Shown here one piece after another: positions 3,843 to 53,547 of a stretch of 64,000 nucleotides of DNA. Origin of the DNA: an uncultured Planctomycetales bacterium (lineage in GTDB: Bacteria > Omnitrophota > Gorgyraeia > Gygaellales > Profunditerraquicolaceae); the NCBI GenBank assembly GCA_964603585.1, contig CAZRVK010000001.1, positions 438,541-502,540 on the forward strand. Reading direction: 5' to 3'. Within the stretch, counting starts at the first letter, position 1, and every line of letters starts with the position of its first letter. The notes beneath the pieces were generated by a model that made no database searches, was not told the DNA's origin, and was given only the letters and a program-made list of their open reading frames with translations. The position numbers were made by a program, and so were the translations under genes.

Positions 3843-3854
3843 TTTCCCGCTCCT

Positions 3855-8300: not shown

Positions 8301-9870
8301 GAAGTTGCGGCTCTTTTGATAGAAAGGCATAGGCAATATCGCTCCCCATAGAACCTACAGGCTCTTTAGCCTCAACCGCCATAGGTTTAATGATCATTTT
8401 CAGGTCTTCACGGGAATAGCCGAAAGCCTTAAGTTTAGGGAGCAAATCTTGTGATATCCTGTTACTTGTTTCCGAACCAATAAGTTTATCCAGATCAACC
8501 ATACTTTCATCATTCCATTTACCGTACGGAAACCTCCGGGCCACATCCTGCTTTATTTGAGAATCTTCGATTATGCGCCCATTCCGGGTATCGATAAAGA
8601 ACATTTTGCCTGGTTCAAGCCTGCCGGAAACCTTAATATTTGCCGGATCAATATCCAAAACACCGACCTCGGAAGCCATAACCACAAAATCATCATGAGT
8701 CAAAATGTAACGTGCAGGCCGAAGGCCGTTTCTATCCAAAATCGCCCCAATATTATAACCATCCGTAAAGGCAATGGCTGCCGGTCCATCCCAAGGTTCC
8801 ATAAAACAAGCATGGTATTTATAAAAATCCCGAAGTTCCTTGCTTATATGCTTGTCATGTTCCCAAGCCGCAGGGACTAACATCATCATTGCATGTTCAA
8901 GAGTCCGGCCGGACAAGACCAAAAGCTCGAAGAAATTATCCATTGCCGCTGAATCACTCCCCCCCTCAACGATAACCGGCTTGAGCTTCTCGATATCCAT
9001 ACCAAAAAGTTCACTGGTCAGCAACCGCTCCCGGGCTTTAACCCCGTTTACATTGCCCCGTAAAGTATTGATCTCACCATTGTGCGCCAGGAACCTGAAA
9101 GGCTGGGCTAAATTCCAGGTTGGGAAAGTATTGGTGGAATAACGCGAATGCACCAGGCACAAAGCGCTCTTTAAACTTTCATCCCTAAGGTCAAGAAAGA
9201 AATCATCTATTTGCTCGGGCATAAGCAGCCCTTTATAAGAGAAGGTACGGGCTGAAATATTAGTGATATAAAAGTATCCCTTCTGCTTCAGATCAGAGCC
9301 CAGGATGATATTCTCGATCTCTTTTCTAATACAGTACAGCCTTCGTTCAAAAACAAGTTCATCTTCCCCTGGCAGCTCTGTATTTACTCCGCCTGTATGC
9401 TTAGCGCGTTCGGGCACACTCTTTGCGACAAAGACCTGTTCAATTACGGATTGAGTACTTTTTGCGCCTTCGCCGATCACAGAATCATCGATTGGCACCT
9501 GGCGCCATCCCAGCAACACCTGGCCTTGATCTTCGATTACCTTATTGAATACTTCTTTGCAAAACCTGCGTTCCGAAATATCTGGGGGCAGGAATATCAA
9601 TCCACTGCCATAAGATCCTGGAACAGGCAACTCAATATTGATAGCTGCAGCCGCTTTTTTAAAGAAATCATGCGGGGTCTGGATCAAGATCCCTGCGCCG
9701 TCCCCGGTCTTTGGATCAGAACCAACCGCCCCCCGGTGCGCAAGACGATGCAAAACCTCTACCCCTTGTTTAATGATAGCGTTGGAGGAATGACCTTTGA
9801 TATTACAGACAAACCCTACTCCACAGGAATCATGTTCGAATCCCGGATCATATAAGCCTTGTTTTTTCAT
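5293..9870 (-). CDS. gltB: glutamate synthase large subunit
   Basis: 1525 aa. N-terminal CGVGFV Ntn-amidotransferase start, followed by FMN and GXGXG domains. Confidence 0.92.
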   Translation of the reverse strand: MKKQGLYDPGFEHDSCGVGFVCNIKGHSSNAIIKQGVEVLHRLAHRGAVGSDPKTGDGAGILIQTPHDFFKKAAAAINIELPVPGSYGSGLIFLPPDISERRFCKEVFNKVIEDQGQVLLGWRQVPIDDSVIGEGAKSTQSVIEQVFVAKSVPERAKHTGGVNTELPGEDELVFERRLYCIRKEIENIILGSDLKQKGYFYITNISARTFSYKGLLMPEQIDDFFLDLRDESLKSALCLVHSRYSTNTFPTWNLAQPFRFLAHNGEINTLRGNVNGVKARERLLTSELFGMDIEKLKPVIVEGGSDSAAMDNFFELLVLSGRTLEHAMMMLVPAAWEHDKHISKELRDFYKYHACFMEPWDGPAAIAFTDGYNIGAILDRNGLRPARYILTHDDFVVMASEVGVLDIDPANIKVSGRLEPGKMFFIDTRNGRIIEDSQIKQDVARRFPYGKWNDESMVDLDKLIGSETSNRISQDLLPKLKAFGYSREDLKMIIKPMAVEAKEPVGSMGSDIAYAFLSKEPQLLYSYFRQLFAQVTNPPIDSIREKLVMSLESFIGPEKNILEQSPKHSHKLRVRNPILTNTDLEKIRDISINSFKTKTIYTFFDALSGKEGFVQALDRVCFESEYAIEQGYSFIILSDRGIDKDNVALPALLAVSAIHQYLVRKTVRSQVALVVESAEPREVHHFALLFGYGADCINPYLAYETVEYLVRQKEIKLEPKTALKNYIKAITDGILKILSKMGISTLRSYRGAQIFEALGLDNEFIDRYFTGTVSRIGGVSLEGIVEETLERHRQAYALRSTDADYLSSGGVYQWKKDGEFHLWRPESIAALQEATSRGDYEKYKEFARLINDQSSNPVTLRSLLEFSGSASGGKKITPVPIDEVEPVHSILKRFVTGAMSFGSISGAAHETIAIAMNRIGGKSNTGEGGEDPNRFVSLPNGDSRRSAIKQVASGRFGVTINYLVNADEIQIKISQGAKPGEGGQLPGHKVSEIIARTRYTTQGVTLISPPPHHDIYSIEDLAQLIFDLKNANPVARVSVKLVSEVGVGTVAAGVAKGHADMILISGGDGGTGASPRSSIRYAGLPWELGLAETHQTLLLNNLRSRVRLQADGGMRTGRDVAIAALLGAEEYGFCSAVLVVIGCVMLRHCHLNNCSLGVATQDSILQKRFRGRPEYIVNYFHFIAQELRQIMADLGLRTVNEMIGRCDLLELNRKIVPEKAKGVDYSRILYNPKLPEHIGRYCKEKQDSGLDNVLDRKLIQIWENCLQKNEPVKALLNINNTNRAAGALLSGEVCRRCGDNVLLEDALYFKFKGIAGQSFGAFLAKGITFELEGLANDYIGKGISGGKIIVYPDSRINYKADDNIIAGNTSFYGAISGEAYINGIAGERFCVRNSGLYAVVEGVGDHGCEYMTGGRVIILGRTGRNFAAGMSGGIAYVYDEDASFKERCNLDMVELEHIKADDRDTIYHLLSHHVKYTRSTKAKKILDALNVELKRFVRVMPLEYKRILEGAKLEEKLNIAEAIDG

Positions 9871-10115
9871 ATCTTTACCTCATTCACAGAAATACCCAGT
9901 TTCTTTATTTTAGCGCGCAAAGTGTTCCGGTTAATACCCAATAACCTGGCAGCCTTGATCTGATTGCCAAAAGTTATTGCTAATGTATTTTTGATCAATG
10001 ATTTATCCAGCGCATCCAGCATAATATGGTATATTTTGCCTTCCTGCTGTTTAAGAAAAAACCTGTCCAGCTCTGCAAGCGCCTTTTCTATTTCCTTTGC
10101 CTTTTCATCATTCAT
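9867..10115 (-). CDS. Fis-family helix-turn-helix protein (stand-alone)
   Basis: 82 aa. C-terminus AARLLGINRNTLRAKIKKLGI is a Fis-type HTH. Overlaps the gltB start by 4 bp. Confidence 0.6.
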   Translation of the reverse strand: MNDEKAKEIEKALAELDRFFLKQQEGKIYHIMLDALDKSLIKNTLAITFGNQIKAARLLGINRNTLRAKIKKLGISVNEVKI

Positions 10116-10195
10116 TTTTTGTCTAAAAATTAATCACCCGTGTTTAACAAAAAAACTTTACTTGGGGTGCTGATCTCATAAGAACTTATCGCGCC

Positions 10196-12391
10196 TTAAC
10201 TGATAAACAGCATTTCCCTGTACTTAGGCAGGTCCCAGACATTATCCGGAACAACTTCTTCCAATGCATCAACGTGCTTGCGGATATGTTCCATTAACGG
10301 CTTAAGCTCATGAAAATAAAGCTGTGCGCGTTTCTCATTACTAAGAGGCCTGGCGCGCTCAAGCAATTTGACCATCTCTTGCGCATTGCGCCTGACATAA
10401 TAGATCTTTGCTACGATATCGCTCAAATGATATTTCTTATCCTCTAAAGCTGCTTTATCAATCTTAAGGCCGGCGGCATTTTTTAAAGCCACCAATTCAG
10501 AAAGTGAGCCGGCAAGAAGTTTTTCATAAATATATCCGGCCGGAACAACGGAAGCGTTGACCATTTCATTTAAGGTATTAGCTTCGATCTCTAAAGTAAG
10601 GTTATACATATGCACCCAGATATGATTCCGGGCAAGTATTTCTTCCTTAGAATAAACATTATATTTCTCGAATAACGCTATATTCTTTTCGTCTGCCAAA
10701 GCCTCTAACGCCTGGTAAGTTGAAGCGATATTCGGCAATCCTCTTTTCTTGGCCTCTTTAATCCATTCCGGCGAATAATTATTCCCCTCGAAACGAATAT
10801 CCTTGGTTTGTTTGACAATAGTACTAACCACTTTTAAGACCGCAGAATTGAAATCCTTACCCTGGGAACTTGCCATTTTGATCTGACCAGACACATAATC
10901 AAGGCTCTCGGCAATTATCGTATTCAATACCGCGATTGCCGTTGATATATTCTGCGATGAACCTACGGCACGAAATTCAAATTTGGCCCCGGTAAATGCA
11001 AACGGCGAAGTACGGTTCCTATCCGTAGAATCTTTATTGAAACTTGGCAAACGGCTGATACCCAGATCAATAATATCCCGTTTTGATACTTTTGCCTTCA
11101 CCCCAGCCTCCAGCATATTTAAGACCCCGGTTAATTGTTCTCCCAGGAATACACTAATGATCGCCGGAGGAGCTTCATTTGCGCCTAAACGGTGCTCATT
11201 ACCGGCTAAAGCCACTGACGCACGCAAAAGGTCCGCATGCAAATATACCGCCCTTAAAACCGCAGCCAAAACCGTTAAGAATTGCAGATTGTCCTGTGGA
11301 GTTTCCCCCGGATTAAGCAGATTATTCCCTTTATCATCCGACAAAGACCAATTAAGATGTTTACCGCTGCCATTAATACCGGCAAAAGGCTTTTCATGCA
11401 ACAAGCATACCAGATTATGCCGCAAAGCTACTTTTTTAAGCAACTCCATAAGCAGTTGATTGTGGTCCGCGGCAAGATTAGACTCTTCGAATATAGGAGC
11501 AAACTCGTATTGATGCGGAGCAACTTCATTATGGCGGGTCATAAGCGGAATACCCAGTTTATATGCCTCCTCGGCAACCTCAAACATAAAATTAACCACT
11601 CGCTCTTTGATCGTGCCGAAATACTGGTCTTCCAACTGCTGGCCTTTAGGGCTTGGTGCACCGATCAAAGTACGTCCGGTCATCACCAGATCCTGTCGCA
11701 AATTGTAATAATTCTTATCGATCAAAAAATACTCCTGCTCCGGTCCGCAGGTAGAAAAAACCTTTTTAATATCCTTATGCCCAAAAAGCTTAAGTAATCC
11801 CAAAGCGGATTTATTTAAAGCATCATCAGACCGTAAAAGCGGCAGCTTTTTATCTAAAGAAGCGCCATGATATGAAATAAATATGCTCGGGATACAAAGG
11901 GTCTTACCGAGGGTGCTTTCAATGATAAAAGCCGGGCTGGAAGGGTCCCATGCAGTATAACCCCTTGCCTCAAAGGTAGCACGTATCCCTCCGGAAGGAA
12001 AACTTGAGGCATCCGGTTCACCCTGGATTAATTTACTCCCGGAAAATTTCTCGATCACCTTTGCCTGTCCAGCAAAAGAAATGAAACTATCATGCTTCTC
12101 CGCAGTAAGCCCGGTCATCGGCTGGAACCAATGCGTATAATAAGTTGCCCCTTTTGCTATCGCCCAGTCCTTCATGGCATTAGCGATCTCATTAGCCTGG
12201 GTTAGACTTATGTTTTTTCCTTCCAGGATCCAGGACTGAAAAGCCTCAAAGGTATTTTCGGATATATGCTTGCGCATCGCCTCAAGGCTAAAGGTATTCT
12301 CTCCGAAATAAGCAGAAACTTTTTTGGCCGGGCAAGTTTTATCCAACTCGACGCTTTTAATCTTAAACAATGCTTTTTGTCTTATACTCAT
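10196..12391 (-). CDS. glnN: glutamine synthetase type III
   Basis: 731 aa, the GSIII size class, with GS catalytic-domain motifs (GINGSGKHLNWSL). Follows amt-glnK. Confidence 0.85.
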   Translation of the reverse strand: MSIRQKALFKIKSVELDKTCPAKKVSAYFGENTFSLEAMRKHISENTFEAFQSWILEGKNISLTQANEIANAMKDWAIAKGATYYTHWFQPMTGLTAEKHDSFISFAGQAKVIEKFSGSKLIQGEPDASSFPSGGIRATFEARGYTAWDPSSPAFIIESTLGKTLCIPSIFISYHGASLDKKLPLLRSDDALNKSALGLLKLFGHKDIKKVFSTCGPEQEYFLIDKNYYNLRQDLVMTGRTLIGAPSPKGQQLEDQYFGTIKERVVNFMFEVAEEAYKLGIPLMTRHNEVAPHQYEFAPIFEESNLAADHNQLLMELLKKVALRHNLVCLLHEKPFAGINGSGKHLNWSLSDDKGNNLLNPGETPQDNLQFLTVLAAVLRAVYLHADLLRASVALAGNEHRLGANEAPPAIISVFLGEQLTGVLNMLEAGVKAKVSKRDIIDLGISRLPSFNKDSTDRNRTSPFAFTGAKFEFRAVGSSQNISTAIAVLNTIIAESLDYVSGQIKMASSQGKDFNSAVLKVVSTIVKQTKDIRFEGNNYSPEWIKEAKKRGLPNIASTYQALEALADEKNIALFEKYNVYSKEEILARNHIWVHMYNLTLEIEANTLNEMVNASVVPAGYIYEKLLAGSLSELVALKNAAGLKIDKAALEDKKYHLSDIVAKIYYVRRNAQEMVKLLERARPLSNEKRAQLYFHELKPLMEHIRKHVDALEEVVPDNVWDLPKYREMLFIS

Positions 12392-12421
12392 ATAATCCTC
12401 CTCAAAAGTAAAAATAAAATG

Positions 12422-12763
12422 TTATCCTATTGCTACCGGGCCGCGTTCTTCAGTACGTATACGCACGCATTCCAGAAGGTCTAAAACAAAGATCTTGCCA
12501 TCTCCGGTCTCTTGGGTCTTGGCCCCACTCACAACCGCTCGAATCGTCGGCTCTAAAAAACTGTCATTCACTGCGATCTCCAGCCTAATCTTGCGTAAAA
12601 GGTTACCCGTCTCTTTCGCCCCGCGATAGATCTCGGTTACCCCCATCTGCCGGCCATGCCCCAGCACCTCACTCACAGTGATAAGATTCACCTCTGCTTT
12701 ATATAATTCTTCTTTTACCGATTCTAATTTATCCGGTTGAATAATCGCTATAACTAATTTCAT
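12422..12763 (-). CDS. glnK: P-II nitrogen regulatory protein
   Basis: 113 aa. MKLVIAIIQPDKLESVKEEL and a T-loop region GHGRQMG. Lies directly downstream of amt. Confidence 0.85.
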   Translation of the reverse strand: MKLVIAIIQPDKLESVKEELYKAEVNLITVSEVLGHGRQMGVTEIYRGAKETGNLLRKIRLEIAVNDSFLEPTIRAVVSGAKTQETGDGKIFVLDLLECVRIRTEERGPVAIG

Positions 12764-12859
12764 TGAACACCTCCGCTTTTTATCTAATTAAATCATTTAA
12801 ACCAGCCGGAATCAGCAGAAATAACCCAGGATCACCCAAAGAATGTATAGCCTGCCGTA

Positions 12860-14089
12860 TTATTCCAAAACAGTGTATGCCCTTTCGCGATGCTGGGTAA
12901 GGTCCAAACCCATTAACTCGGACTTTTTATCTACCCTGACACCAATAAATAAATCAACTATCTTATATATCACGATCGTGATCACGCTCGTATAAACAAT
13001 GGTTATCCCTACCGCAGCTAACTGCACTAATAATTGTTTTGGATTGCCGAAAAACAGACCGTCCGCACCAGCCGCATTTACTGTTTTGGAGGCAAATAAC
13101 CCGGTTGCGATTGCACCCCAAATCCCGCCAATACAATGGACGCCAAAAGCATCAAGAGAATCATCGTATCCGAATTTAGGCTTAATTACTGTAACCGCAA
13201 TAAAACAAAAAACACTGACCAGCAAACCAATAATGACAGCCGGGACCACACTGACAAAACCTGCGGCAGGAGTGATCGCAACCAAACCGGCAACTGCGCC
13301 TGAACATAAACCGAATATCGTAGGCTTGCCATTATGATACCATTCAATCAATGCCCAGCTTAACCCGGCAGATGCTGCCGCGGTATTAGTAACTACAAAA
13401 GCGTTGACCGCCAACCCGTTTGCCGCAAGCGCACTGCCGGCATTGAAACCAAACCAGCCGAACCACAATAAACCTGTACCCAGGACTACGAAAGGCATAT
13501 TATGCGGAGTAGGCACATTCTTTTCTAAATTAGTCCGTTTGCCTAAAACAACTGCCGTTATAAGTGCGGCGATCCCGGCATTAATATGCACGACTGTGCC
13601 TCCGGCAAAATCTAAAGCCCCCCAATTACGCAGGAACCCTCCGATTGCCCATACCCAATGACAAAGCGGGGCATAAACAAAAGTTGCCCAAAGTAAAGTA
13701 AAAACAAGAAACGCCGAGAATTTCATCCGTTCGGCAAAAGCTCCAATGATCAAGGCCGGGGTGATGATCGCAAACATACATTGAAAGATCATGAACGCCT
13801 GATGCGGAATAGTTCCGGCATAATCCGGGTACGGCTCTAAACCTACCCCGGATAAACCTGCCCATGAAAACCCTCCCCAAAACCCTTTTCCCGGGGCAAA
13901 AGACAGGCTATATCCGATCAAAACCCAATGAATACTTAAGATACACATTACGATAAAACACTGCATCAAAACACTAAGGACGTTTTTTCTCCTGACCATA
14001 CCCCCATAAAAAAAAGCCAAAGCCGGGGTCATAAGCAGAACCAAAGCCGATGAAATTAAGACCCACGCCGTATCCCCTGAATTTATCAT
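12860..14089 (-). CDS. amt: ammonium transporter
   Basis: 409 aa multi-TM protein with Amt/MEP signatures (DFAGGTVVHINAG, GAFAERMKF). Confidence 0.9.
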   Translation of the reverse strand: MINSGDTAWVLISSALVLLMTPALAFFYGGMVRRKNVLSVLMQCFIVMCILSIHWVLIGYSLSFAPGKGFWGGFSWAGLSGVGLEPYPDYAGTIPHQAFMIFQCMFAIITPALIIGAFAERMKFSAFLVFTLLWATFVYAPLCHWVWAIGGFLRNWGALDFAGGTVVHINAGIAALITAVVLGKRTNLEKNVPTPHNMPFVVLGTGLLWFGWFGFNAGSALAANGLAVNAFVVTNTAAASAGLSWALIEWYHNGKPTIFGLCSGAVAGLVAITPAAGFVSVVPAVIIGLLVSVFCFIAVTVIKPKFGYDDSLDAFGVHCIGGIWGAIATGLFASKTVNAAGADGLFFGNPKQLLVQLAAVGITIVYTSVITIVIYKIVDLFIGVRVDKKSELMGLDLTQHRERAYTVLE

Positions 14090-14867: not shown

Positions 14868-16325
14868 CTAAAAACATAAACCTTTCAATAACTCCGGCAA
14901 AAGCGTTTTATAAAGAAAGCTTTTCGAATGTTTACGGCAAAGATATTGCAGGAATACCGGGGATTTCCTATTTAAGAATTCCGGATAATCCAAGGGATGC
15001 CTCTTAAAACGGCTCTCCCATTCTACCCAATCTTCCATTATTCTGGATATCCTCACCCCAGCTTTTTCCTTGAAGGCATAGAGTGTTTTCTGAAAAACCT
15101 GGCTATCATAAAGCCGGTCCATAGCATAGGATAACTTCTCTATTTTCTTTACCTGCTCTTCAGTCATAACATCGCTTTTATATGCATAATACGGGGGATG
15201 CGGATCGTATTTTATCCCAAATGCCGCGGCTTTATCCCGTAAAACCGTACCCGGAAGCAATCTTAAACGGAAAATCACTACTTTTGCCGGCTGCAAAGAA
15301 TAAAGCCAATCCAATGCCTCCATCAGATTGTCATAACTCTGATAAGGAAGTATGTCAATAAGCTGTATTTCATAATAAAGCTTGTATTTATTCAAGTGCC
15401 TTATACCCTGTAAGAATCTTTCTTTATTGAAGATGCGATTAACCGCTTTTAAGGTTTTAAGATTTGTGCTCTGGATACCGATCTCGATATTGTAGGCATT
15501 GGCTTTTGATAAAAGATATGCCATCTCTTCATCAACTAATTCTGCTTTTAGCTCTAAATGCAAATTAGATCCCTGATTGTACCTAACAAAGATCTTGAGG
15601 ATATCCTTGGCCCTTTTAGGATCAGAATTGAAAGTAGCATCCATTAAATAAACTTCATGGGGCTTATGGGAAAGAATAAGCTTTAACTCCCTCTCTACCC
15701 TGGCCAGAGGGAACTTTCTGACTACAGGGAAATTCTTATGATAATAACAATAATGACAACTGGAATAACAGCCTCGCATGGTCTCCAAAGGCACATCAAC
15801 GATTTTCTTATCTTCAAGATCCACCAATCCGGATAAATAAGGTGAAGGGATCCTGCCGATATTACGCATAAGCGGCCTATCCGGATTATGAATGATCTGC
15901 TTATTCTTACGAAAAGATACCCCTTTGGTTTTAAATAGGTCTCGGAACAACTCTACAAAACTCTCTTCTGCCTCACCTCTGGCCACAACATCCACCGCTT
16001 TTTCTTGAAACAATATATCTTCTGCCCTGGGGCTTACTTCCGGCCCGCCCAAAATGATCTTTATCCCCGGCTCCCTCTGTTTTAACCGGCGGCAAATACT
16101 CAAGATCTTTTCAATATTCCAGAGGTAACAGGAAAAACCAATTGCCTGCGGCTTAACCTGAAGGATCTTGCGTATGATCTCCCGGATACTTTGATTTTCA
16201 GGAAAAACACCGATAATAACCTCAAAAGAAGGATTAACTTTGAGCATATAAGCTTTTAGATAATAAAGAGCCAGCTGTACATCAGTACCGGTTTCCAGGC
16301 AAATAGAAGAAAGCAATATTTTCAT
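14868..16325 (-). CDS. B12-binding domain radical SAM protein
   Basis: N-terminal B12-binding-like domain, then a radical SAM domain with the CYSSCHYC (Cx3Cx2C) cluster motif. Confidence 0.8.
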   Translation of the reverse strand: MKILLSSICLETGTDVQLALYYLKAYMLKVNPSFEVIIGVFPENQSIREIIRKILQVKPQAIGFSCYLWNIEKILSICRRLKQREPGIKIILGGPEVSPRAEDILFQEKAVDVVARGEAEESFVELFRDLFKTKGVSFRKNKQIIHNPDRPLMRNIGRIPSPYLSGLVDLEDKKIVDVPLETMRGCYSSCHYCYYHKNFPVVRKFPLARVERELKLILSHKPHEVYLMDATFNSDPKRAKDILKIFVRYNQGSNLHLELKAELVDEEMAYLLSKANAYNIEIGIQSTNLKTLKAVNRIFNKERFLQGIRHLNKYKLYYEIQLIDILPYQSYDNLMEALDWLYSLQPAKVVIFRLRLLPGTVLRDKAAAFGIKYDPHPPYYAYKSDVMTEEQVKKIEKLSYAMDRLYDSQVFQKTLYAFKEKAGVRISRIMEDWVEWESRFKRHPLDYPEFLNRKSPVFLQYLCRKHSKSFLYKTLLPELLKGLCF

Positions 16326-16597
16326 TTGACGATAATTAGTGACGTATAGGTTTAATACCGGCCTTACCCCGGTAATGGCAAGGATTTAATTGTACTCCCC
16401 TCTATGCTGACTGTCTATATATATTTAGGATAAAATCAGCCTCAAAGATCATTATTTTAGGGTTGTATCTTGCTTAACTTATTTAATTACAGATACTTAA
16501 GAATAGCAACTTGATCGTCCAATAAAAACCATACATTCTGGCTTACTTGAAATCGATAACTTAGTGTGCTATATTTATATAGGAAATAGAGCTTACT

Positions 16598-16678
16598 GAT
16601 AAAGGCAAACTAGCAGCAATGCTGGGACGCAAAGCTTCCGGCCCAAGGTCTTGGGCAGCGGGGTTACCAAAGAAGCAA
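16598..16678 (+). ncRNA. c-di-GMP-I (GEMM) riboswitch
   Basis: AAAGGCAAAC, then a P2 hairpin AGCA-GCAA-UGCU with a GNRA loop, then GGGACGCAAAGCUUCCGGCC...GGCAGCGGGGUUACCAAAG. This is a near-consensus match to the Vc2-type aptamer. Confidence 0.72.
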
Positions 16679-16688
16679 AAAACCGCTA

Positions 16689-16713
16689 ACCCTAAAGTAA
16701 TTTAGGGTTTTTG
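16689..16713 (+). terminator. riboswitch expression-platform terminator 1
   Basis: ACCCUAAAguaaUUUAGGGU followed by UUUU. Confidence 0.5.
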
Positions 16714-16721
16714 TATTACGT

Positions 16722-16750
16722 GCCCAGCAAAAAATGCTGGGCTTTTTTAT
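16722..16750 (+). terminator. riboswitch expression-platform terminator 2
   Basis: GCCCAGCAaaaaaUGCUGGGC followed by UUUUUUAUU, 12 nt before the ATG. Confidence 0.55.
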
Positions 16751-16762
16751 TGCGGAGCGAAA

Positions 16763-17059
16763 ATGGCTAAGAAAATAAGAGTTTTTACCTTAATTCTGGG
16801 AGCTATATTCCTGCTTACCTACCAATACGCTTGGGCAGGAGACAGCTACTCCATAAAAGTTTCCTGTGTAATACCGGCGATACCCGGATTTAACGCCCCA
16901 ACCATCATTGAGAAAACAGCCGTTAAACCTAAAGCGGAAGAACCTGTATATAAGGAATCTAATAATAAAGGACTGATCCAGAAGGAAACAAAAAAAGAAA
17001 TTATCTCAAGAGGACAGGAACCAACTTTAATAGCCTTACAAACAGTATATGTAAAATAA
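16763..17059 (+). CDS. small secreted protein (signal peptide), unknown function
   Basis: 98 aa. N-terminal hydrophobic signal LILGAIFLLTYQYAWAG. The only plus-strand gene in the area and the riboswitch target. Confidence 0.45.
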   Translation: MAKKIRVFTLILGAIFLLTYQYAWAGDSYSIKVSCVIPAIPGFNAPTIIEKTAVKPKAEEPVYKESNNKGLIQKETKKEIISRGQEPTLIALQTVYVK

Positions 17060-17064
17060 AACCT

Positions 17065-19968
17065 TTAATCCTTTGTGCGTTTAAGCGGGATATTATGCAC
17101 AAAAACCACACCCTCAAAAAGGGTGATTTTTTTTGTAATAGATATCTCCGGCAAATAATAAACCGGCACGGTGCTTAGATCCAGGTTTAAAATATGTTCC
17201 CCGCTGGAAACATGCGGAAAAGAATACCTGCCCCGGTCATCGGTACTACCCCGGAGCCCATTCTCCAAGGTCAGAGAAACCCCTCTTACTCCCACATCAC
17301 CGCTGGAATACCTGCCGTCGCCATCGACATCCTCAAACACAAAACCAGATATTTCAGAGCGGGCAACAAGGCCGAACTCCAACCGGGATGTCTGAAAGTT
17401 CTTTATATAGGTTGACTGTGTAGCAGGGACCGTTAAAACAAAACCTGCCGGAATAGTAGCAGTATCTATTGTTACCGGCACCAGCCGGCCGCTCACTTTC
17501 TTAAACCTGAAATAGCCAAAGATATCGGTTTCTTCCGACCGGTTCTTGCCCAGCCATATTTTTACCCCGGATATAGGCGGCTCATTATTCTCTCGTAAAC
17601 CATCGGCGTTATAATCCTTGAATACATATCCGTCAATATCGCCCTCTGACTGCCAACTTAATCCAGTATTCCAAAGATATCTGACCCCGGAATTGAAACT
17701 GCCTTCAAGGCGTTTTGTAACATTCTGATTATCTGCCCATACATTGCGCACTCTGGCAGAAGCATAAATCTCACTGCCTTCAGCCGGGCGGAAGGATAAC
17801 TCGGAATAACCTTCGATATAATCCTCCCCGGAAAGAAAACTCAAAGGTGAAGCCGTATCCTGCTCGTTACGATACGTAATACGGGTGGCATTATGGAATG
17901 GGCTTTGACCGATCTGTCCTGACCAATCAAGCCCGGTCTCATAAGCGTTGGGAAAAGTCCTGTTTTTGCTAAATCTTTCCCGCAGCCAATTCACCTCGGC
18001 GTTTGCGTAATAAAACAGATTCCGGATCAAATCAAACCTTAATCCCGCATAAATACGGTCGTTGATATAATCAGACATATGGGAGGAGAAATTAGTGTTC
18101 TCCTGATGAAAATAGGTCAAAGAAGTATTTATTTCCCGGATAAATTTAAAGCTTTTTGCCAAACCAATATCGGCATTCTGATATCTATAGCGGGATAAAC
18201 TCCCTAATCGGTTTTGTAGAGTATAGTTCAATTTAAGAGAGGTCTTAGGATCAAACTGGTATAAAAACCGCGAGGTAAAGTCTTCATTCGGGACAATGGA
18301 ATCCGCCTGTGCCGGAAAAAGCCTGTCTCTAAAAACATCCAGGCTGCTTTCAAAACTTAACTTTTCATTAAACCTGTAGTTGAGATGAAACAAACCTCCT
18401 AATTCCCCCTGGCTCCAGCTGCTGCCGGTGATACTTAAGAACTTTTTGTTAATATTCCTTATCTGCGCATCAAAATCCAGATTGGGACGGATATAATGAG
18501 TATCCAATGTATTGGCGAATGTATTGGAATCAAAAGCTACTTCCTGCCTTATTTTCCAGGCGCCTAAATCCCAGCTCCCCATAAGGTCATAGCCATAATT
18601 ATGCAAATTCTCTTCTCTATCCTGCCCCCATCCCCGTACAAAATTAAACCGGTAATTACTTCCGGCAATCGGGGAATAGTCCAAGTTTATCCCCTCAAGG
18701 AATGCATCTTTCTTCGTATTAAGGTTAAATGAAAGGTTGCCATAACTGGTAGGATTTTCTTTTCCGTGGAAAACCGTATATTTCAAATGATTATTAAATG
18801 CCGGAGAAGAAAACATTACCCCGCGTAAAGCAATCCCCGGGAATGAAAGATTAGAAAAGTACGGCGGGATATCAAAGAAATCGAACCCCCGAAGGCTGAA
18901 TCCCTGAAAAGGTCCTAATTGCCCATTAGTTAAACCCAAGGTATAGTGGCTTAATTTAGTCGCCTGGTATTGAAACTGATTAACGGAAATTGTCGAATCA
19001 AGATCGCCATAGGGGGTTTGCCCCCAAAGGCTAAGGTTATGATTATAAAAATAATCTGTCCGGCCCAAGTCCCTGAAACTCCGGCCTTTTTCGAATAATG
19101 ACCAGTCCATGGAATAAAGCACTTTAAAATTTTCCGCTAACTCTTCGGCCTGGCGCATCTGATCCTCTAAAGTGGGACCTTCGACCCTGGCAGGGACGAT
19201 AAGAAACTCCAAAGTCCACCGGCCATTTTCATCCCAAACATGCATATAAGTATAGCCGATCTGCCGGCCCACAACCAAAAGCTCATCAGCACCTTGCTGG
19301 ACAACCTTTAAAATATCAGGCTGAATAACCAGAAATCTTTGTATGGATTTGCCGGAAATAATTACCCCTTTGCCGAGTTCGACTTGCACAGGAGCGGTCC
19401 CTTTGCTTAAAGATTCATCTAAAATGACCATTTCCTCACTGATCTCTGGAGGCTCTTCTTCCATAGTAACAGGGGGATCTATTCCCCCCTCACCAGTAAC
19501 GGCTACTTCCTGGCTCAACATCTGACTGCCTAAGACCTCTGTCTGAATAAGATGCGAAGGATCTGCCGGTTGTTTTAAGACCGGGTTTAGCGAATGGGTT
19601 TCTTTGCCTAAGATCAACTGCTCGATCATGATCAATTCACGATCCACGATCTCTTTTTTCTCCGATAAAGGTATTGATGGCACATCCGCAACCCGAGCCT
19701 TAGCGGCCTCGGACTTGCCAGTTTTTTGTTTGATCGCACGGATCTTCTGAATATAATCTTGAGCCGGCTTATATCCCGGGAATATTATCAATGCCTTTTT
19801 GAATTCATCCAGGGCATAATCATATAAACCTTGTTTGTAAAGCCTGGCTCCTTCCTCACAAAGAAATTCGTGCACTGATGCTGCATGGGCGGGAAATACA
19901 AAAATAAGGGTCAGGACTAAAACTGCAGAACAAAGGAAGGTTTTCTTCATTATGTTACTTAAACTCAC
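17065..19968 (-). CDS. large outer-membrane usher-like protein (TPR-like plus pilus-N-like N-terminal domains, beta-barrel, two C-terminal Cna-B/SdrD-B-like domains)
   Basis: 967 aa with a signal peptide. GKSIQRFLVIQPDILKVVQQGADELLVVGRQIGYTYMHVW resembles a secretin/pilus-N domain. The long middle is aromatic-rich and beta-strand-like. The C-terminus has GYVFKDYNADGLRENNEPPISGVKIWL and GFVFEDVDGDGRYSSGDVGVRGVSLTL. Overlaps the chaperone-like gene by 14 bp. Confidence 0.45.
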   Translation of the reverse strand: MSLSNIMKKTFLCSAVLVLTLIFVFPAHAASVHEFLCEEGARLYKQGLYDYALDEFKKALIIFPGYKPAQDYIQKIRAIKQKTGKSEAAKARVADVPSIPLSEKKEIVDRELIMIEQLILGKETHSLNPVLKQPADPSHLIQTEVLGSQMLSQEVAVTGEGGIDPPVTMEEEPPEISEEMVILDESLSKGTAPVQVELGKGVIISGKSIQRFLVIQPDILKVVQQGADELLVVGRQIGYTYMHVWDENGRWTLEFLIVPARVEGPTLEDQMRQAEELAENFKVLYSMDWSLFEKGRSFRDLGRTDYFYNHNLSLWGQTPYGDLDSTISVNQFQYQATKLSHYTLGLTNGQLGPFQGFSLRGFDFFDIPPYFSNLSFPGIALRGVMFSSPAFNNHLKYTVFHGKENPTSYGNLSFNLNTKKDAFLEGINLDYSPIAGSNYRFNFVRGWGQDREENLHNYGYDLMGSWDLGAWKIRQEVAFDSNTFANTLDTHYIRPNLDFDAQIRNINKKFLSITGSSWSQGELGGLFHLNYRFNEKLSFESSLDVFRDRLFPAQADSIVPNEDFTSRFLYQFDPKTSLKLNYTLQNRLGSLSRYRYQNADIGLAKSFKFIREINTSLTYFHQENTNFSSHMSDYINDRIYAGLRFDLIRNLFYYANAEVNWLRERFSKNRTFPNAYETGLDWSGQIGQSPFHNATRITYRNEQDTASPLSFLSGEDYIEGYSELSFRPAEGSEIYASARVRNVWADNQNVTKRLEGSFNSGVRYLWNTGLSWQSEGDIDGYVFKDYNADGLRENNEPPISGVKIWLGKNRSEETDIFGYFRFKKVSGRLVPVTIDTATIPAGFVLTVPATQSTYIKNFQTSRLEFGLVARSEISGFVFEDVDGDGRYSSGDVGVRGVSLTLENGLRGSTDDRGRYSFPHVSSGEHILNLDLSTVPVYYLPEISITKKITLFEGVVFVHNIPLKRTKD

Positions 19969-20848
19969 CTACTTTTACCGATCCTCCTTCTCCAATCTCC
20001 ATTTCTGCTTCTTTTACTATTACCGGGCCTCTGCCTGTTCCGGCTTCTTCCAATGCTTTGCCTAAATTAAAAGTAAGGATTAAATGATACTTACCCTTTG
20101 GCAAAGCTTCTTTCCACGTAGCAGAAAGAAGCGCACTATCGCCCGGGAATGTATAGATATCTTTAAACTCACCCCTGGCCAATACCATATTTTTCTCATC
20201 CAGAATATTGAAATTCCCTCCGGCAGTAATATCAACGTTGCCGGTATTCTTGAACTTTATTGAGATCAAAAAAGGATCGTCGGAAGTTGTGTGCTCGACA
20301 CTGTAATCACTTAATTGACCTGTCCGGTTCAAGGAACCTTCTGCCTCTATATAAAACAAAGTAGCGACCCTGATAGCAATATTCATGCCGACTTTAAGGC
20401 CACCCTGCTCGGGCCCGGGATTATTGAATACACTCTCAAAAAATAAAACCGCATAGTACCCCCCTTTTGCCTCGGGAGGAACCCTGACAGAATATTTAAG
20501 TTTTTGTTTGCTAAAAGGCTCCAGAGTAAACTCGGCGGGAGAAAAACTTATCCAGGTAGCAGCAGATAAAGGAGTTGTTCCGGCAGGGAGAAATTCCTTT
20601 GTGCCATCGGCAGGCGGCAAATAACGCCAATCCTCAAGATACGCCCGAATGCTCCTGGTCTCCGAAGTAACATTCTCGATATTTATCTCCCCGTAACCAC
20701 TCTCACCGGGAGAAATAGAAAGCCTGATCTTGGACTGATCGATATACGGTAGCTCGATCGCCTGGGCAAATTGATAAAAGCCGATGAAAAGAAAAATAAA
20801 GAATATCCCTGTACTTATGATCTTGTATCCCTTGATTTTTCCTCTCAT
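19955..20848 (-). CDS. periplasmic pilus chaperone-like protein (PapD/CsuC-like fold inferred)
   Basis: 297 aa with a signal peptide. N-terminal IRLSISPGESGYGEINIENVTSETRSIRAYLEDW fits the PapD_N-type pattern. Sits between the pilin and the usher-like gene. Confidence 0.4.
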   Translation of the reverse strand: MRGKIKGYKIISTGIFFIFLFIGFYQFAQAIELPYIDQSKIRLSISPGESGYGEINIENVTSETRSIRAYLEDWRYLPPADGTKEFLPAGTTPLSAATWISFSPAEFTLEPFSKQKLKYSVRVPPEAKGGYYAVLFFESVFNNPGPEQGGLKVGMNIAIRVATLFYIEAEGSLNRTGQLSDYSVEHTTSDDPFLISIKFKNTGNVDITAGGNFNILDEKNMVLARGEFKDIYTFPGDSALLSATWKEALPKGKYHLILTFNLGKALEEAGTGRGPVIVKEAEMEIGEGGSVKVGEFK

Positions 20849-20882
20849 CGGCTTCCCTCGATCAATAATATTGTGTTAATGC

Positions 20883-21479
20883 TTACGGTGAAAGCGTTAA
20901 AGTTACCGTGCCGGTGTATGCACCGATGGCTTTTGTTGAAGTAATCACCGATACACCTGAAGCATCACCGCTTCCTGAAGCCAAGGCATAGTATATCCGT
21001 AATCTGGCACCAGACAGATCAGAACTATTGATAATCTTGCTATTACTGTTTTCATAACTAATATAGCCGTTTGTAAGCTGCGTCTCGGCATTTGTTGAGT
21101 TATCCACCTTGACAAATTTTACATTGGTATGGCCATTCAAGGTTTGTGCCGGAGTAGTCGTGTTGGCGAAATTTGTCCTGGTATGAGTTATAGACCAGCT
21201 GCTATGGTTGGAAACTACCGGGGCATCGACGTAAAAATAGGCATCGGAACGAAAATTATTATCCGCGCCCTTTACCAGTGTCCCAAAATCCATACCGATT
21301 CCGGTTAGATCTGCGATTGGGGTATAAACACTGCCCACGATCTTCATCAGGCTAACATTCATTTGATGCACCTCGCCGATATTGGCGGCGATCTTGATAT
21401 TCGTCGCAGCAAAACCAACAGATGCCAGACAAGTTATCAATAACGATACCACAGTAAACAAAAAGATCTTTTTCCTCAT
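20883..21479 (-). CDS. SCPU (spore coat protein U/Csu)-type pilin subunit
   Basis: 198 aa with a signal peptide. C-terminus GAYTGTVTLTLSP matches the SCPU G-x-Y-x-d-T-v-t-v-t-v signature. An internal DFGTL motif resembles that of CsuA/B. Confidence 0.5.
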   Translation of the reverse strand: MRKKIFLFTVVSLLITCLASVGFAATNIKIAANIGEVHQMNVSLMKIVGSVYTPIADLTGIGMDFGTLVKGADNNFRSDAYFYVDAPVVSNHSSWSITHTRTNFANTTTPAQTLNGHTNVKFVKVDNSTNAETQLTNGYISYENSNSKIINSSDLSGARLRIYYALASGSGDASGVSVITSTKAIGAYTGTVTLTLSP

Positions 21480-21543
21480 TGCCCCCTCCTTATTTTTGTT
21501 AAAACATCTTCTCCGTTTAAAACTTTTTTATCCCTCCTTTTTT

Positions 21544-22953
21544 CTATATTTCTGACAAAGAATACGTGACATTGGTCGAATAATCACCCGCCTTTGCATC
21601 CTTTGGACATTCTAATTCATAAATGATCTTAAACTTATCCGAAGAACCCTGATTGTCAGAGGCAAATAAAACAACATTCCCGGATCTCACTTCCTGCCTT
21701 TTAGGGAACTTTAAAGTCCCTTTTGTCGAGAGGCTTTCCGTCCAGAAGGTAAAATACCGATCCGGTATAATATCACCCTGCTTATTAGTAAGAGCCGAAG
21801 TTATCCCCTGGATCACTTGATAGGGTTTACCGATATTAGTCCGCGTTTCAAAAATAACTGCATTCTGCTTCGGAGGAGTAAGCGGGGTAAGGTTAGAAAA
21901 TTCAATGGCATACTTCTGATTTTCTGGCGCAACGGTAAAATCGAACATCCGCTCATTATTCACTTCAATTTGCAAAGTATCGATCTTCTTCTGGGCAGTG
22001 CGCTCTTCTAAAATGAACTGAACCCTCCCAAGATATTTCCCGGCTTTCTGACTGGATATATCACCCAACTGATAAAGTAAAACAAATTCATTATCATATA
22101 CCCCGGGGGCAGATGATGTATAAATGTCCTGCGGCTGTAAGGTCAACGGCGTAAAACGATTTATCGATACGCCTTTTTGTGCATTTTGGATCATAAAATT
22201 TACTGTCCCGTCATTCAGGCGGCTGCCTTCTGCGGATTCAAGGGACTGCGATAAGGATTGGCTAATACTAAAAGGTTCCTTATAAACCCCTTTTATCCTA
22301 ATTAAAACCTCCGCTTTCTGCACTCCATCTTTCTTTGAATTAAGGACAACCTGCCTTGCTCCTCCCGGAGTGATGATTTCAATAGTAGATTTTGCCGAGG
22401 GATTAATATTAACCATAACATCAAGTATTTTAGTGACTTGCTGTCTATTCGATCCAATAGGATTTAAAATAAAACCGATGCGCCCAGAATAATAGCCTGG
22501 TTCTATGTTCTCGATATTCTTTATCCCGTAAACCAAACTGAAAGTATCCGCCTCTCCTGTGGGAGCCGAGACATAAATCACATCATCGGACCTTACCGGA
22601 TGCTCATTGGACATAAACCGGAGATTCCCGAATTTATTACTGCCTCTTAAAGCATAAACGACAAAATTATCCCGAATAACTATCCCGGGATTCTGGTTAT
22701 TCTCCAATGGTTTAATTATTTTCTGGATAACTTCGTAACGGGTGGAGACATTAGAATTTACCTCTAAATTCAACCCCCGGTAAAGCCGTGATTGGTCAAA
22801 TTCTAAACGGAAACCGCCTTCGGTAAGATTAAAAGACAGATCGAAATTATCACTGGCACTGGCAGACAAGAAAACAAGAAGAGAAAAACAAATGAATGCA
22901 AGAGATCCGATTATTCCCGTGGCTTTTCTCACTATATACACCTTTTTGCACAA
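21544..22953 (-). CDS. three-domain SCPU-like secreted protein (putative tip adhesin)
   Basis: 469 aa with a signal peptide. Three repeats each end in an SCPU-like strand (GYYSGRIGFILNP, GKYLGRVQFILEE, GDYSTNVTYSLSEI). First gene of the cluster. Confidence 0.42.
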   Translation of the reverse strand: MCKKVYIVRKATGIIGSLAFICFSLLVFLSASASDNFDLSFNLTEGGFRLEFDQSRLYRGLNLEVNSNVSTRYEVIQKIIKPLENNQNPGIVIRDNFVVYALRGSNKFGNLRFMSNEHPVRSDDVIYVSAPTGEADTFSLVYGIKNIENIEPGYYSGRIGFILNPIGSNRQQVTKILDVMVNINPSAKSTIEIITPGGARQVVLNSKKDGVQKAEVLIRIKGVYKEPFSISQSLSQSLESAEGSRLNDGTVNFMIQNAQKGVSINRFTPLTLQPQDIYTSSAPGVYDNEFVLLYQLGDISSQKAGKYLGRVQFILEERTAQKKIDTLQIEVNNERMFDFTVAPENQKYAIEFSNLTPLTPPKQNAVIFETRTNIGKPYQVIQGITSALTNKQGDIIPDRYFTFWTESLSTKGTLKFPKRQEVRSGNVVLFASDNQGSSDKFKIIYELECPKDAKAGDYSTNVTYSLSEI

Positions 22954-23189: not shown

Positions 23190-23579
23190 TTAGTTTTGTA
23201 TTCGCGGTTTTATTTCGCCTTTTTGGACCTTATCCAGGAAAGCGTCCAGAAGCTCATCCGCTTCTTCCAGGCTGGCAAGCAAATTATCAGAAAGGATCTT
23301 AACCGATTCAAAAACCAGCTTTATCTGCTCTTGGGGATTAACCAGCATAAACGATCCGCCTTTTTCCTCTACTATTTTCTTCGCCTTAAATAATGTTCTT
23401 AGCCCCATACTACTGATATAGGTGAGATCTTTTAGTTCAAAGATTATTGCGGCAGCAGAAGGAAGGATACGAATAACCTCTTTTTCAAGGATATCGTAAG
23501 TAGTAGTATTAAGCTCTCCCGCCAAGGTAAACAAAAAAACCTTATCTCTTGTTTCTTTAGTCGATATCTCCAGTGGCAT
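23190..23579 (-). CDS. STAS-domain anti-sigma-factor antagonist
   Basis: SpoIIAA-like, with the conserved phosphorylatable Ser region DLTYISSMGLRTL. Confidence 0.7.
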   Translation of the reverse strand: MPLEISTKETRDKVFLFTLAGELNTTTYDILEKEVIRILPSAAAIIFELKDLTYISSMGLRTLFKAKKIVEEKGGSFMLVNPQEQIKLVFESVKILSDNLLASLEEADELLDAFLDKVQKGEIKPRIQN

Positions 23580-23688
23580 GCTCTTTAGTTTTTATATAAC
23601 CCTGTTTTCAGTGAGTGATAAAGCGCATGTATTATAGATATTATACAACTCATTTAAATATTTAGCAATACCTTTAAAGACCGTAATT

Positions 23689-24075
23689 TCATCCACGGTC
23701 CGTTTTCTCTGCCATTTGGATCGCGGTCTTTAATGCAGACTCCGAATCGGTAAATACGCCGGCCTTCGGGATATATGCAAACACCCCGAGGTCCTCGGTC
23801 GCTTCCATAGAGCGCTTGTCAGGGGATGTGGTAAACATGATGACAGGCACTTTTTTATCTATACTGCGCAGATGCTTTAATGTATCAATACCATCCATAC
23901 CCGGCATTAAATAATCCAGGACGATCAACCCTACTTTACTATTAGTAACGGTATCAACCGCATCCTTCCCGCTAAAAACGGAAATTACCTCATACCCCCA
24001 AGAATGTATCTTCCTGGACAAAAGCCCAGAAAAATCCTTATCGTCGTCAACAATCAATATTTTCAGATTATCCAT
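23689..24075 (-). CDS. single-domain response regulator (receiver)
   Basis: ILIVDDD...LIVLDYLMPGMDG and a conserved K signature. No output domain. Confidence 0.8.
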   Translation of the reverse strand: MDNLKILIVDDDKDFSGLLSRKIHSWGYEVISVFSGKDAVDTVTNSKVGLIVLDYLMPGMDGIDTLKHLRSIDKKVPVIMFTTSPDKRSMEATEDLGVFAYIPKAGVFTDSESALKTAIQMAEKTDRG

Positions 24076-24087
24076 AAGTCCCCTCCC

Positions 24088-25356: not shown

Positions 25357-25507
25357 CGTCAGGCCCCTCTCCGCATTATACTATCTTATATAGTTGAATC
25401 AACAATAATAGTGATCCGCAAGCAATAAGAAAGGCTATAACCGCTTTTAACGATCATAGCCTTTAATTTACATTTACCCGGAGGATGCGAATACAGTTTT
25501 TCTTATA

Positions 25508-25903
25508 TTACGAATGGGATTCGATAACGCTGACAAAATTAGCTATATCCTCCCTGATCCTGTCATCCAGATTAAGGAACGCTATTCCTAAACGATAAGA
25601 ATCCTTATCGAAATTTGTATTGGAAGTTACTTTTCCCAACAGCTCCAGATCCCCATAAAATCCGCCGCTTTTGCCTACAGATTCGAATAAAGAAAACTTT
25701 ACTAAAATATCAGTCCCTACCGAAACATTGATTTTGGTCAATATCGCCATACCGCCTTCGCCAATATCAACCATCTTGGCATCGTTTTCCCCCTTATCAT
25801 CGCGGATGCGCACATCAGGGACATCGTTCTTACGGTAAACAACCGTTACCCCCAGCTTCACCCTCCGATATTTTCTTTTTTCGACTCCAGAATAGTTCGA
25901 CAT
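25508..25903 (-). CDS. PilZ domain c-di-GMP-binding protein
   Basis: RRVKL (RxxxR) and DIGEGGMAI (D-x-S/G-x-GG) motifs. Confidence 0.65.
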   Translation of the reverse strand: MSNYSGVEKRKYRRVKLGVTVVYRKNDVPDVRIRDDKGENDAKMVDIGEGGMAILTKINVSVGTDILVKFSLFESVGKSGGFYGDLELLGKVTSNTNFDKDSYRLGIAFLNLDDRIREDIANFVSVIESHS

Positions 25904-52462: not shown

Positions 52463-52497
52463 AAAAAAAACCATCCTGCAGCAAAACTGCAAGATGG
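52463..52497 (-). terminator. intrinsic terminator after the crcB-DUF190 operon
   Basis: On the minus strand, CCAUCUUGCAGuuuuGCUGCAGGAUGG is followed by UUUUUUUU. Confidence 0.6.
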
Positions 52498-52697
52498 CGG
52501 CCCGACCACCTTAACTTTCCTACCTCCAGGAATACCTGCGTATCCCCAGACCACTTATCTGTCGCAACTTAATATACCATAATCGAAGGAAAACGCAAAG
52601 TAATAGTGCTGACTCGCATACGTAGCCCAAAAGTTTCTTGCATGATCATATAAAATCTATAAGATTCCGGCCTTATCAGCCATTTGAATTAAAATAA

Positions 52698-53428: not shown

Positions 53429-53449
53429 AAACTGATACCCCCCTTTCTT

Positions 53450-53505: not shown

Positions 53506-53547
53506 TAAAGATATTGTATCAGATAAAACAAGTTCTTTTAAGTGAAA

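Follow-up and report, generated by a model that had tools for sequence, protein, structure and literature searches.

Riboswitches of the cyclic di-GMP (c-di-GMP)-I class (GEMM-I; Rfam family RF01051), such as Vc2 of Vibrio cholerae and Cd1 of Clostridioides difficile, share a three-helix junction, a GNRA loop on P1a and the residues G20, A47 and C92, which contact c-di-GMP in Vc2 (PMC4744006). In the OFF switch Cd1, aptamer and terminator coexist, which Landgraf et al. describe as the hallmark of that switch, and the antiterminator was found to be stable only transiently; in the ON switch pilM, the aptamer and the terminator exclude each other (PMC9262584). Bc1, from the Bacillus cereus group, combines one GEMM-I aptamer with an AU-rich weak terminator and then a strong one in a single expression platform (PMC11218506). 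Here, we analyze an RNA of similar layout, encoded by an uncultured member of the Omnitrophota, whose aptamer lies at 16595–16672 on the plus strand of the window, by which we mean the whole 64-kilobase (kb) stretch of DNA. The aptamer has the junction, loop and residues named above and, like other RF01051 members, sits in a 5′ leader ahead of a surface- or motility-related gene; as in Cd1, its terminators are separate from it and able to coexist with it. Unlike the RF01051 examples, it comes from uncultured Omnitrophota, has a short, interrupted P1, is followed by two terminator hairpins instead of one and precedes the gene for an unannotated small secreted protein of about 100 amino acids (aa).

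The explanation we consider probable, and which fits better than any rival, is an OFF riboswitch that would control a disordered accessory protein of a neighboring pilus system; we infer ligand binding, switch direction and pilus role from comparative sequence analysis and modeling.

The riboswitch leader and its predicted direction

Direct reading of the sequence revealed a compact plus-strand transcription unit spanning 16540–17140. Consensus scanning placed a sigma-70-type promoter at 16547–16575 (TTGAAA, 17-nucleotide (nt) spacer, TG-TATATT), followed by the aptamer, which is backed by a match to the Rfam model RF03167, by our own covariance model and by covariation. Two hairpins with U-rich tails come next, T1 at 16688–16717 (consensus scan, orthologue comparison) and T2 at 16722–16748 (consensus scan, folding). 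A Shine-Dalgarno sequence, GGAG, was read at 16754–16757, 5 nt 5′ of the ATG at 16763 that opens the gene for the 98-aa protein (16763–17059; open reading frame (ORF), profile and substitution-rate evidence). The unit closes with a terminator at 17109–17134 (CACCCUCAAAAAGGGUG, A, U8), again found by consensus scan. An earlier note on this DNA had proposed a GEMM-I aptamer at 16598–16678, two stacked intrinsic terminators and a 98-aa signal-peptide gene as the only plus-strand gene nearby. All of this is borne out: Rfam places a c-di-GMP-I-clan aptamer within a few nucleotides of the proposed position, T1 and T2 are conserved in most of 59 loci, and, the small gene apart, every ORF from 379 to 34581 that is 100 aa or longer lies on the minus strand (embedded and antisense ORFs excluded). 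The leader (16540–16762) is 98.2% identical to that of locus L003, the only close relative, while in the same pair the adjacent ORF has a synonymous divergence (dS) of 0.25 and the spacer further upstream is 62% identical; the leader is therefore conserved beyond what chance would give.

Homologues of the usher-like 967-aa protein encoded by the convergent operon were found solely in metagenome-assembled genomes of Candidatus Omnitrophota (32–53% identity), and a profile of this family yielded 78 loci from species-representative genomes. A covariance-model search detected the aptamer in about 58 of these 78 loci with an usher-like gene, nearly always on the strand opposite that gene and 300–900 nt past its stop codon. 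A homologue of the 98-aa protein is encoded 3′ of the aptamer in 59 loci, which share one layout: promoter, aptamer, AU-rich T1, GC-rich T2, sometimes an extra small gene, the secreted protein and the end of the convergent operon. One locus, L064, carries the riboswitch module co-directional with the operon. The association with the neighboring operon, suggested in the earlier note, is thus conserved across species, and a promoter of the form TTGAAA-N16-18-TAnnnT lies 17–21 nt 5′ of the aptamer in 46 of 56 orthologous loci. We found no paper tying together Omnitrophota, the operon described here and a riboswitch.

To describe the aptamer, we built a covariance model from 11 aptamers on an Rfam-consistent structure; an RNAalifold consensus of the same sequences mis-paired GGC with GCC and was discarded. 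Under this model, the window aptamer scores 97.3 bits. Across the 11 orthologues and the 21 pairs of the P1/P1a/P1b three-way junction, 99.6% of cells are paired, and nine pairs show compensatory changes on both sides. None of 500 shuffles reached the observed values for pairing, compensatory change or covariation, and slid-partner controls gave 31–46% pairing. P1a is capped by GCAA, a GNRA tetraloop of the kind that makes the type-1 GEMM tertiary contact, and relatives have GYAA or GAAA at this site; P1 can be extended by pairing 16591–16594 with 16673–16676.

The two hairpins differ in predicted strength. T1 (AACCCUAAA-GUAA-UUUAGGGUU, 16688–16709) has 9 base pairs (bp), three of them G-C, and a tail, UUUGUAUU, in which the U-tract is interrupted; T2 (GCCCAGCA-AAAAA-UGCUGGGC, 16722–16742) has 8 bp, six of them G-C, and a U6 tail. 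With its few G-C pairs and broken U-tract, T1 should thus be the weaker of the two, and this AU-rich hairpin may act as a weak terminator or pause site, whereas T2 is predicted to be a strong intrinsic terminator. The 1.5-kb region holds six terminator-like sites, compared with 1.8 ± 1.4 in shuffled sequences. A motif search recovered T1 in 52 of 60 loci, and a strict finder recovered T2 in 41 of the 52 T1-bearing loci; the two recur together in most loci, with compensatory changes in their stems. The sequence of T2 is free and its pairing is kept (GCCCAGCA/UGCUGGGC, GCCCCGGC/GCCGGGGC and CCCCCGC/GCGGGGG). T1, in turn, is conserved in sequence across species, reading ACCCUAAAG, a loop, CUUUAGGGU and then U-tracts.

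The bearing of the aptamer on these hairpins was assessed by partition-function calculations on 52 loci with the aptamer enforced or free, which treat a kinetic process as if at equilibrium. With the aptamer enforced, the probability of a terminator fell in no locus and often rose. Across loci, the mean for T1 increased from 0.86 to 0.95 and that for T2 from 0.82 to 0.96; in the window, T2 went from 0.66 to 0.98. Individual loci responded sharply, with T1 rising from 0.47 to 0.96 in L004 and from 0.01 to 0.92 in L058, and T2 from 0.01 to 0.95 in L022. Aptamer and terminators do not overlap, and they coexist in the minimum-free-energy fold.

Complementarity between aptamer and terminators offers candidate structures for the ligand-free state. 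In 42 of 51 loci, the T1 loop contains [G/U]CC just 5′ of the 3′ arm, an element that the hairpin itself does not need. In about half of the loci, it extends the complementarity of T1 to the aptamer 5′ core (UAAAGGCA with UGCCUUUA, −9 to −12.5 kcal/mol) and, in the large L043 clade, to the 3′ strand and tail of P1 (GCCAAAGGAU with AUCCUUUU); formation of either duplex would cause antitermination when no ligand is bound. This loop element is missing from the window and from L003, and the T1 duplex energy is just −1.9 kcal/mol. In the window, it is ACGUGCCCAGCA, comprising the T2 5′ arm and the preceding ACGU, that pairs with aptamer positions 16620–16630 (UGCUGGGACGC), at −17.0 kcal/mol compared with a non-cognate mean of −11.7. 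A window fold lacking T2 lies 2.5 kcal/mol above the minimum free energy and one lacking T1 costs about 6 kcal/mol; by these calculations, T2 would be the switchable hairpin in the window. Pairing of the P1b 3′ strand GGGGUU with the T1 5′ arm AACCC was also considered as a general antiterminator and rejected: in the L043 clade, the P1b strand differs and T1 is unchanged.

From the non-overlapping terminators, the alternative pairings of aptamer strands with terminator arms and the partition-function shifts, we conclude that the element is probably an OFF switch in which c-di-GMP promotes termination. The promoter at 16547–16575 would start a short monocistronic mRNA with the riboswitch as its leader. 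Bound c-di-GMP would lock the three-helix aptamer, leaving T1 and T2 free to form and causing RNA polymerase to terminate ahead of the gene. Without ligand, UGCUGGGACGC would pair with the T2 5′ arm in the window, and in most relatives the loop of T1 and its 3′ arm would be bound by either the 3′ tail of P1 or the 5′ core UAAAGGCA. Read-through would follow in some transcripts, allowing the 98-aa protein to be made and exported.

Several findings weigh against this account. Across loci, the T2 arm–aptamer pairing amounts to −16.7 kcal/mol for cognate and −15.9 kcal/mol for non-cognate combinations, with −14.7 kcal/mol for the reversed arm, which is not a significant difference. In Bc1, the only dual-terminator GEMM-I riboswitch studied so far, T1 behaves in the opposite way, as c-di-GMP opens T1 and T2 stays closed (PMC11218506). 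T1 of the window has no convincing alternative partner and forms with a probability of 0.94 with or without the aptamer, so by thermodynamics alone it would terminate constitutively. Finally, the best-scoring Rfam model for the window aptamer is a variant, RF03167, to which we return below.

High c-di-GMP usually promotes adhesins and pili, a point in favor of an ON or mixed switch. In such a switch, c-di-GMP would open T1, T2 would be a constitutive attenuator or depend on a factor, and the small protein would be raised or unchanged. Bc1, in which the same weak-then-strong terminator pair includes a T1 unfolded by c-di-GMP, provides the precedent (PMC11218506). We regard this as unlikely for the window: the arms of T1 and T2 do not overlap the aptamer, so the folded aptamer cannot sequester them; enforcing it lowered terminator probability in none of the 52 loci; and every complementarity detected (between the 3′ half of T1 and the P1 3′ tail or 5′ core, and between the T2 5′ arm and the 3′ strand of P1a) predicts that antitermination occurs when no ligand is bound.

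Two further features of the leader were observed in relatives. T1 is flanked in many loci by A-rich sequence on its 5′ side and U-rich sequence on its 3′ side and is terminator-like on both strands; it might be a bidirectional terminator that halts read-through from the convergent operon before the aptamer and promoter. A TTGACAATTAGG(A/T)A motif is conserved between the −10 box and the aptamer, about 10–25 nt 5′ of the latter, in many loci (for example, L048, L030, L024 and L009). The window lacks this motif, for which three roles are conceivable: operator, second −35 box, or leader element similar to the 3′ arm of T1.

The small secreted protein and the convergent operon

The 98-aa protein begins with a classic signal peptide, MAKKIRVFTLILGAIFLLTYQYAWA, followed by GDS. 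It matched no Pfam or NCBIfam family, and a single-sequence homology search returned only itself and one relative at 90% identity; the family emerged only through synteny combined with a profile. The profile search found 123 proteins in a clustered database and, with clustering at 50% identity, 441 clusters of the family, all 80–130 aa long. Family members share a signal peptide, an invariant core of the form (G/A)DSx(S/T)IxVSC(T/S)IPxIPGxNxP, a charged linker of variable length and a conserved C-terminal TxY(S/T)R, which reads TVYVK in the window protein; for the latter, the two motifs can be written GDSxSIxVSCxIPxIPGxNAP and TxY(S/V)(R/K). In the comparison with L003, the ratio of nonsynonymous to synonymous divergence (dN/dS) is 0.16 at a dS of 0.25. 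The ORF is a real, conserved gene under purifying selection, in keeping with the earlier note.

AlphaFold2, supplied with a 69-sequence alignment, modeled only the signal-peptide helix, and residues 51–98 have a predicted local distance difference test (pLDDT) score below 50; the protein is predicted to be exported and largely disordered. Given its genomic setting, we infer that it is an accessory of the neighboring chaperone-usher-like pilus system. Its conserved mature N-terminus alternates hydrophobic residues (S-V-T-I-S-M-S-C-T-I-P) in the manner of a donor strand, and hhalign, run with signal peptides removed, paired residues 1–19 with residues 1–19 of the 198-aa putative pilin of the operon (P 0.0013; reversed control, P 0.48). 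One quite unlikely but specific idea is that the protein is a ‘donor-strand-only’ pseudo-pilin, repressed by c-di-GMP, that caps or terminates the growing pilus or plugs the usher. If true, c-di-GMP would, by switching this protein off, determine how long or how numerous the pili of these ultra-small Omnitrophota are, which would be a new coupling of a second messenger to pilus assembly.

The operon itself runs on the minus strand toward the small gene. Its last gene, at 17065–19968, encodes the 967-aa outer-membrane usher-like protein (domain scan, structure prediction), and the three genes upstream of it, at 19955–22953, encode secreted proteins of 297, 198 and 469 aa, included by co-conservation; all four genes are co-conserved. 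The only sequence families recognized in the operon, T2SS-T3SS_pil_N, SdrD_B and a TPR, lie within the 967-aa protein. Its AlphaFold2 model (pLDDT 80.5) comprises TPR helices, a beta N-domain (T2SS-T3SS_pil_N), a barrel of about 24–26 strands and two immunoglobulin (Ig)-like C-domains (SdrD_B). A Foldseek search with this model returned FimD/PapC ushers in the top 12 places (E-values of 5e-19 to 2e-13), with porins and TonB-dependent receptors at about 1e-8. As FimD and PapC ushers are the closest structural matches of the protein, ‘pilus locus’ is a reasonable term. The earlier note had called it a Csu-type pilus operon; the Csu part of that label was dropped, as no SCPU/Csu, PapD or Usher family matched the operon proteins in Pfam or NCBIfam, even at permissive thresholds. 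‘Chaperone-usher-like pilus locus’ is a fair description.

The remaining operon proteins are putative chaperone and pilin-like subunits. The 198-, 297- and 469-aa proteins gave no Pfam match at curated cutoffs and only scattered sub-threshold matches up to an E-value of 10; scanning 11 members of the 198-aa family for known families gave nothing, nor did profile and sequence searches of the three proteins against the PDB. The C-terminus of the 469-aa protein resembles the Pam pilin domain of candidate phyla radiation (CPR) bacteria at a sub-threshold E-value of 0.013, and we treat a relation to Pam pili as a lead only.

The small gene ends at 17059 and the convergent 967-aa ORF at 17065, a gap of 5 bp that matches the spacing given in the earlier note. 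The small gene’s terminator sits within the last ~20 codons of the 967-aa gene (...KKITLFEGV...), so the two transcription units share overlapping 3′ ends; a terminator embedded in the convergent gene, at times as an identical hairpin, was found in 22 of 59 loci. This arrangement could mean that the riboswitch mainly governs antisense transcription into the 3′ end of the operon, acting by interference or RNA duplex formation, with the small ORF secondary. The conserved convergent layout, the 3′ overlap of about 70 nt and a published survey in which c-di-GMP riboswitches were the most prone to antisense placement (PMC9943018) would all be in keeping with such a role. It is nevertheless improbable, as the small ORF is under purifying selection, its protein motifs are conserved in 59 loci and across the 441-cluster family, the strong U8-tailed terminator about 75 nt past the ORF stops the transcript, and the L064 module is co-directional with its operon. 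Control of the small protein by an OFF switch is the reading we retain.

In 32 of the 59 loci, an extra ORF for a cytoplasmic protein of about 80 aa, here termed type B (QRVVTFLNRDEVDFLDKLGKDALFSTG...), lies between aptamer and small gene. It is the first gene after the riboswitch (for example, in L028, L048, L060, L022 and L013), has the consensus QRVVTFLNRDEVDFLDKLGKDALFSTGxKLSRAKLIAWLIDF and possibly encodes a small DNA-binding regulator. The window, which lacks it, shows the simpler arrangement. Neither the type B nor the type C extra small proteins of other loci matched Pfam.

In some loci, an additional GEMM-I aptamer precedes the pilus-like operon and is oriented in its direction, in each case on the plus strand: L073 (3986–4094), L013 (2285–2418), L014 (2286–2423), L005 (1411–1540), L033 (3692–3791) and L061 (323–423). 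Next to this second aptamer comes the gene for an unannotated, approximately 110-aa protein (MRDLVFKNLTS...), and the aptamer of L061 lies directly 5′ of a homologue of the 469-aa first operon gene. In these species, the operon itself is under predicted riboswitch control.

Directly upstream of the operon in the window, and on the same minus strand, the stretch 23190–25903 encodes a STAS protein (23190–23579), a response regulator (23689–24075), a histidine kinase (24088–25356) and a PilZ-domain protein (25508–25903; PF07238, E 2.2e-10 by domain scan). The earlier note was right about the PilZ protein and had placed it 6 kb away; the distance is 8.9 kb. This gene group suggests a second, protein-based c-di-GMP and phosphorelay input. 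On the other side, a B12-binding radical-SAM gene (14868–16325) diverges from the riboswitch promoter. Beyond it lies a minus-strand nitrogen-assimilation cluster (1269–14089) with a 482-aa GltD-like protein, a Fis-type helix-turn-helix protein, a type III glutamine synthetase, P-II and an ammonium transporter; the 1525-aa ORF of this cluster is probably the large subunit of glutamate synthase.

The ligand pocket

The Rfam scan covered the whole window at gathering thresholds. With cmscan, RF03167 (c-di-GMP-I-GGC) matched 16595–16672 of the plus strand over its full length at 63.2 bits (gathering score 59, E 1.5e-12), together with a second, lower-scoring, overlapping match from the same clan (CL00126) that reached at least its own gathering score. 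Scanning 15 orthologous loci identified nine aptamers as RF03167 (59–69.5 bits), at the same syntenic position, and seven as RF01051 (36.6–64 bits, gathering score 35), with exactly nine lower-scoring same-clan matches beneath the top matches. Because the nine RF03167 top matches equal these nine lower matches, RF01051 passes wherever RF03167 comes first, and the lower match in the window is almost certainly RF01051. The earlier note had expected RF01051; membership of its clan holds, with the gathering score passed, and the best model is RF03167 instead. A published survey likewise reports that sister c-di-GMP-I models recognize the same RNAs (PMC9943018).

In the cmscan alignment, the equivalents of G20, A47 and C92 are G at 16604 (AAAG-G-C), A at 16631 (ACGC-A-AAGC) and C at 16667 (UUA-C-C), and all three are invariant across the 11 orthologues. 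The window departs from the RF03167 consensus at two bases, with ACGC-A-AAGC compared with ACGC-G-AAgC between P1a and P1b, and U-A-C compared with U-G-C before the junction C; the two sites correspond in position to A47 and A91 of Vc2. The A47-equivalent column is A in the window and in every orthologue and G in the RF03167 consensus, and we take it, from the model consensus, to be the defining position of the GGC variant. With G20 present, the aptamer is not of the cyclic GMP–AMP (cGAMP) type and, with A47 present, not of the GGC type. All testable defining features of the c-di-GMP-I class are found in it, and we read it as a normal, canonical c-di-GMP sensor, as predicted from its sequence.

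That the RNA is instead a true RF03167 variant sensing another ligand is very unlikely. The top score of 63.2 bits against a gathering score of 59 speaks for it; the A at the A47-equivalent, the canonical G20 and C92, the orthologues at the same position that score best with RF01051 and the shared recognition by sister models (PMC9943018) speak against it. Equally slight is the chance that aptamer, T1 and T2 chiefly form a stand-alone small RNA, a c-di-GMP sponge or trans-acting RNA with the ORF expressed separately: both terminators are predicted in most of the ensemble, so abundant short transcripts are expected, but T2 ends 14 nt 5′ of the ATG, leaving no space for a separate promoter, and promoter, aptamer, T1, T2 and gene are contiguous in 59 loci.

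Among the relatives, L007 has two adjoining aptamer matches on the minus strand (11592–11671 and 11679–11756), a possible tandem riboswitch, and the aptamers of L052, L041 and L011 give split or truncated model matches, suggestive of large insertions within them. Elsewhere in the window, the Rfam scan gave three further gathering-level matches, all on the minus strand: a fluoride riboswitch at 53448–53510 (61.5 bits), an nhaA-I (Na+) RNA at 52492–52553 (37.3 bits at a threshold of 37) and a tRNA at 60008–60082 (63.9 bits). The fluoride riboswitch and nhaA-I elements share a strand, with about 900 nt between them.

Comparison with known systems

The riboswitch class and its general logic are already known, and the dual terminator on a GEMM-I aptamer has a precedent in Bc1 (PMC11218506). 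New here are the host phylum, the rigid phylum-wide synteny, the unannotated small-protein family and an operon that is usher-like by structure prediction only. Together, these delineate a phylum-wide predicted c-di-GMP regulon in uncultured Omnitrophota, centered on a small secreted protein and a chaperone-usher-like operon, and, for a phylum without cultured members, offer a single RNA, the 98-aa protein and the four genes of the operon as a defined handle on surface appendages.

The operon resembles chaperone-usher systems in its parts. The order of parts in the 967-aa protein is that of FimD and PapC, from a beta domain at the N-terminus through a large barrel to a pair of Ig-like domains at the C-terminus, and the three further secreted proteins are of pilin-like or chaperone-like size. 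The 967-aa protein differs from these ushers in an extra TPR segment and in showing no obvious plug domain in the secondary-structure map. With respect to Csu-type archaic pili and the Pam pili of CPR bacteria, the C-domain match to Pam at an E-value of 0.013 is the sole sequence hint in the operon.

For the aptamer, the nearest model by score is RF03167, with which it shares similar helix lengths, and most of its Omnitrophota relatives also have the G before C92; it differs in carrying A, not G, at the A47-equivalent between P1a and P1b. Automatic annotation will call these RNAs ‘GGC variant’ despite their canonical ligand pocket. The expression platform, in turn, compares most closely with that of Bc1, although sequences and host phylum are unrelated and the terminators are 12 nt apart in the window as opposed to 28 bp in Bc1 (PMC11218506). 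In Bc1, c-di-GMP unfolds T1 and T2 is unresponsive (PMC11218506), whereas in our modeling the ligand favors both hairpins, and the T1 stem is conserved over a whole phylum-level clade. The Omnitrophota leader thus represents a second dual-terminator GEMM-I platform, independently evolved and much more widely conserved.

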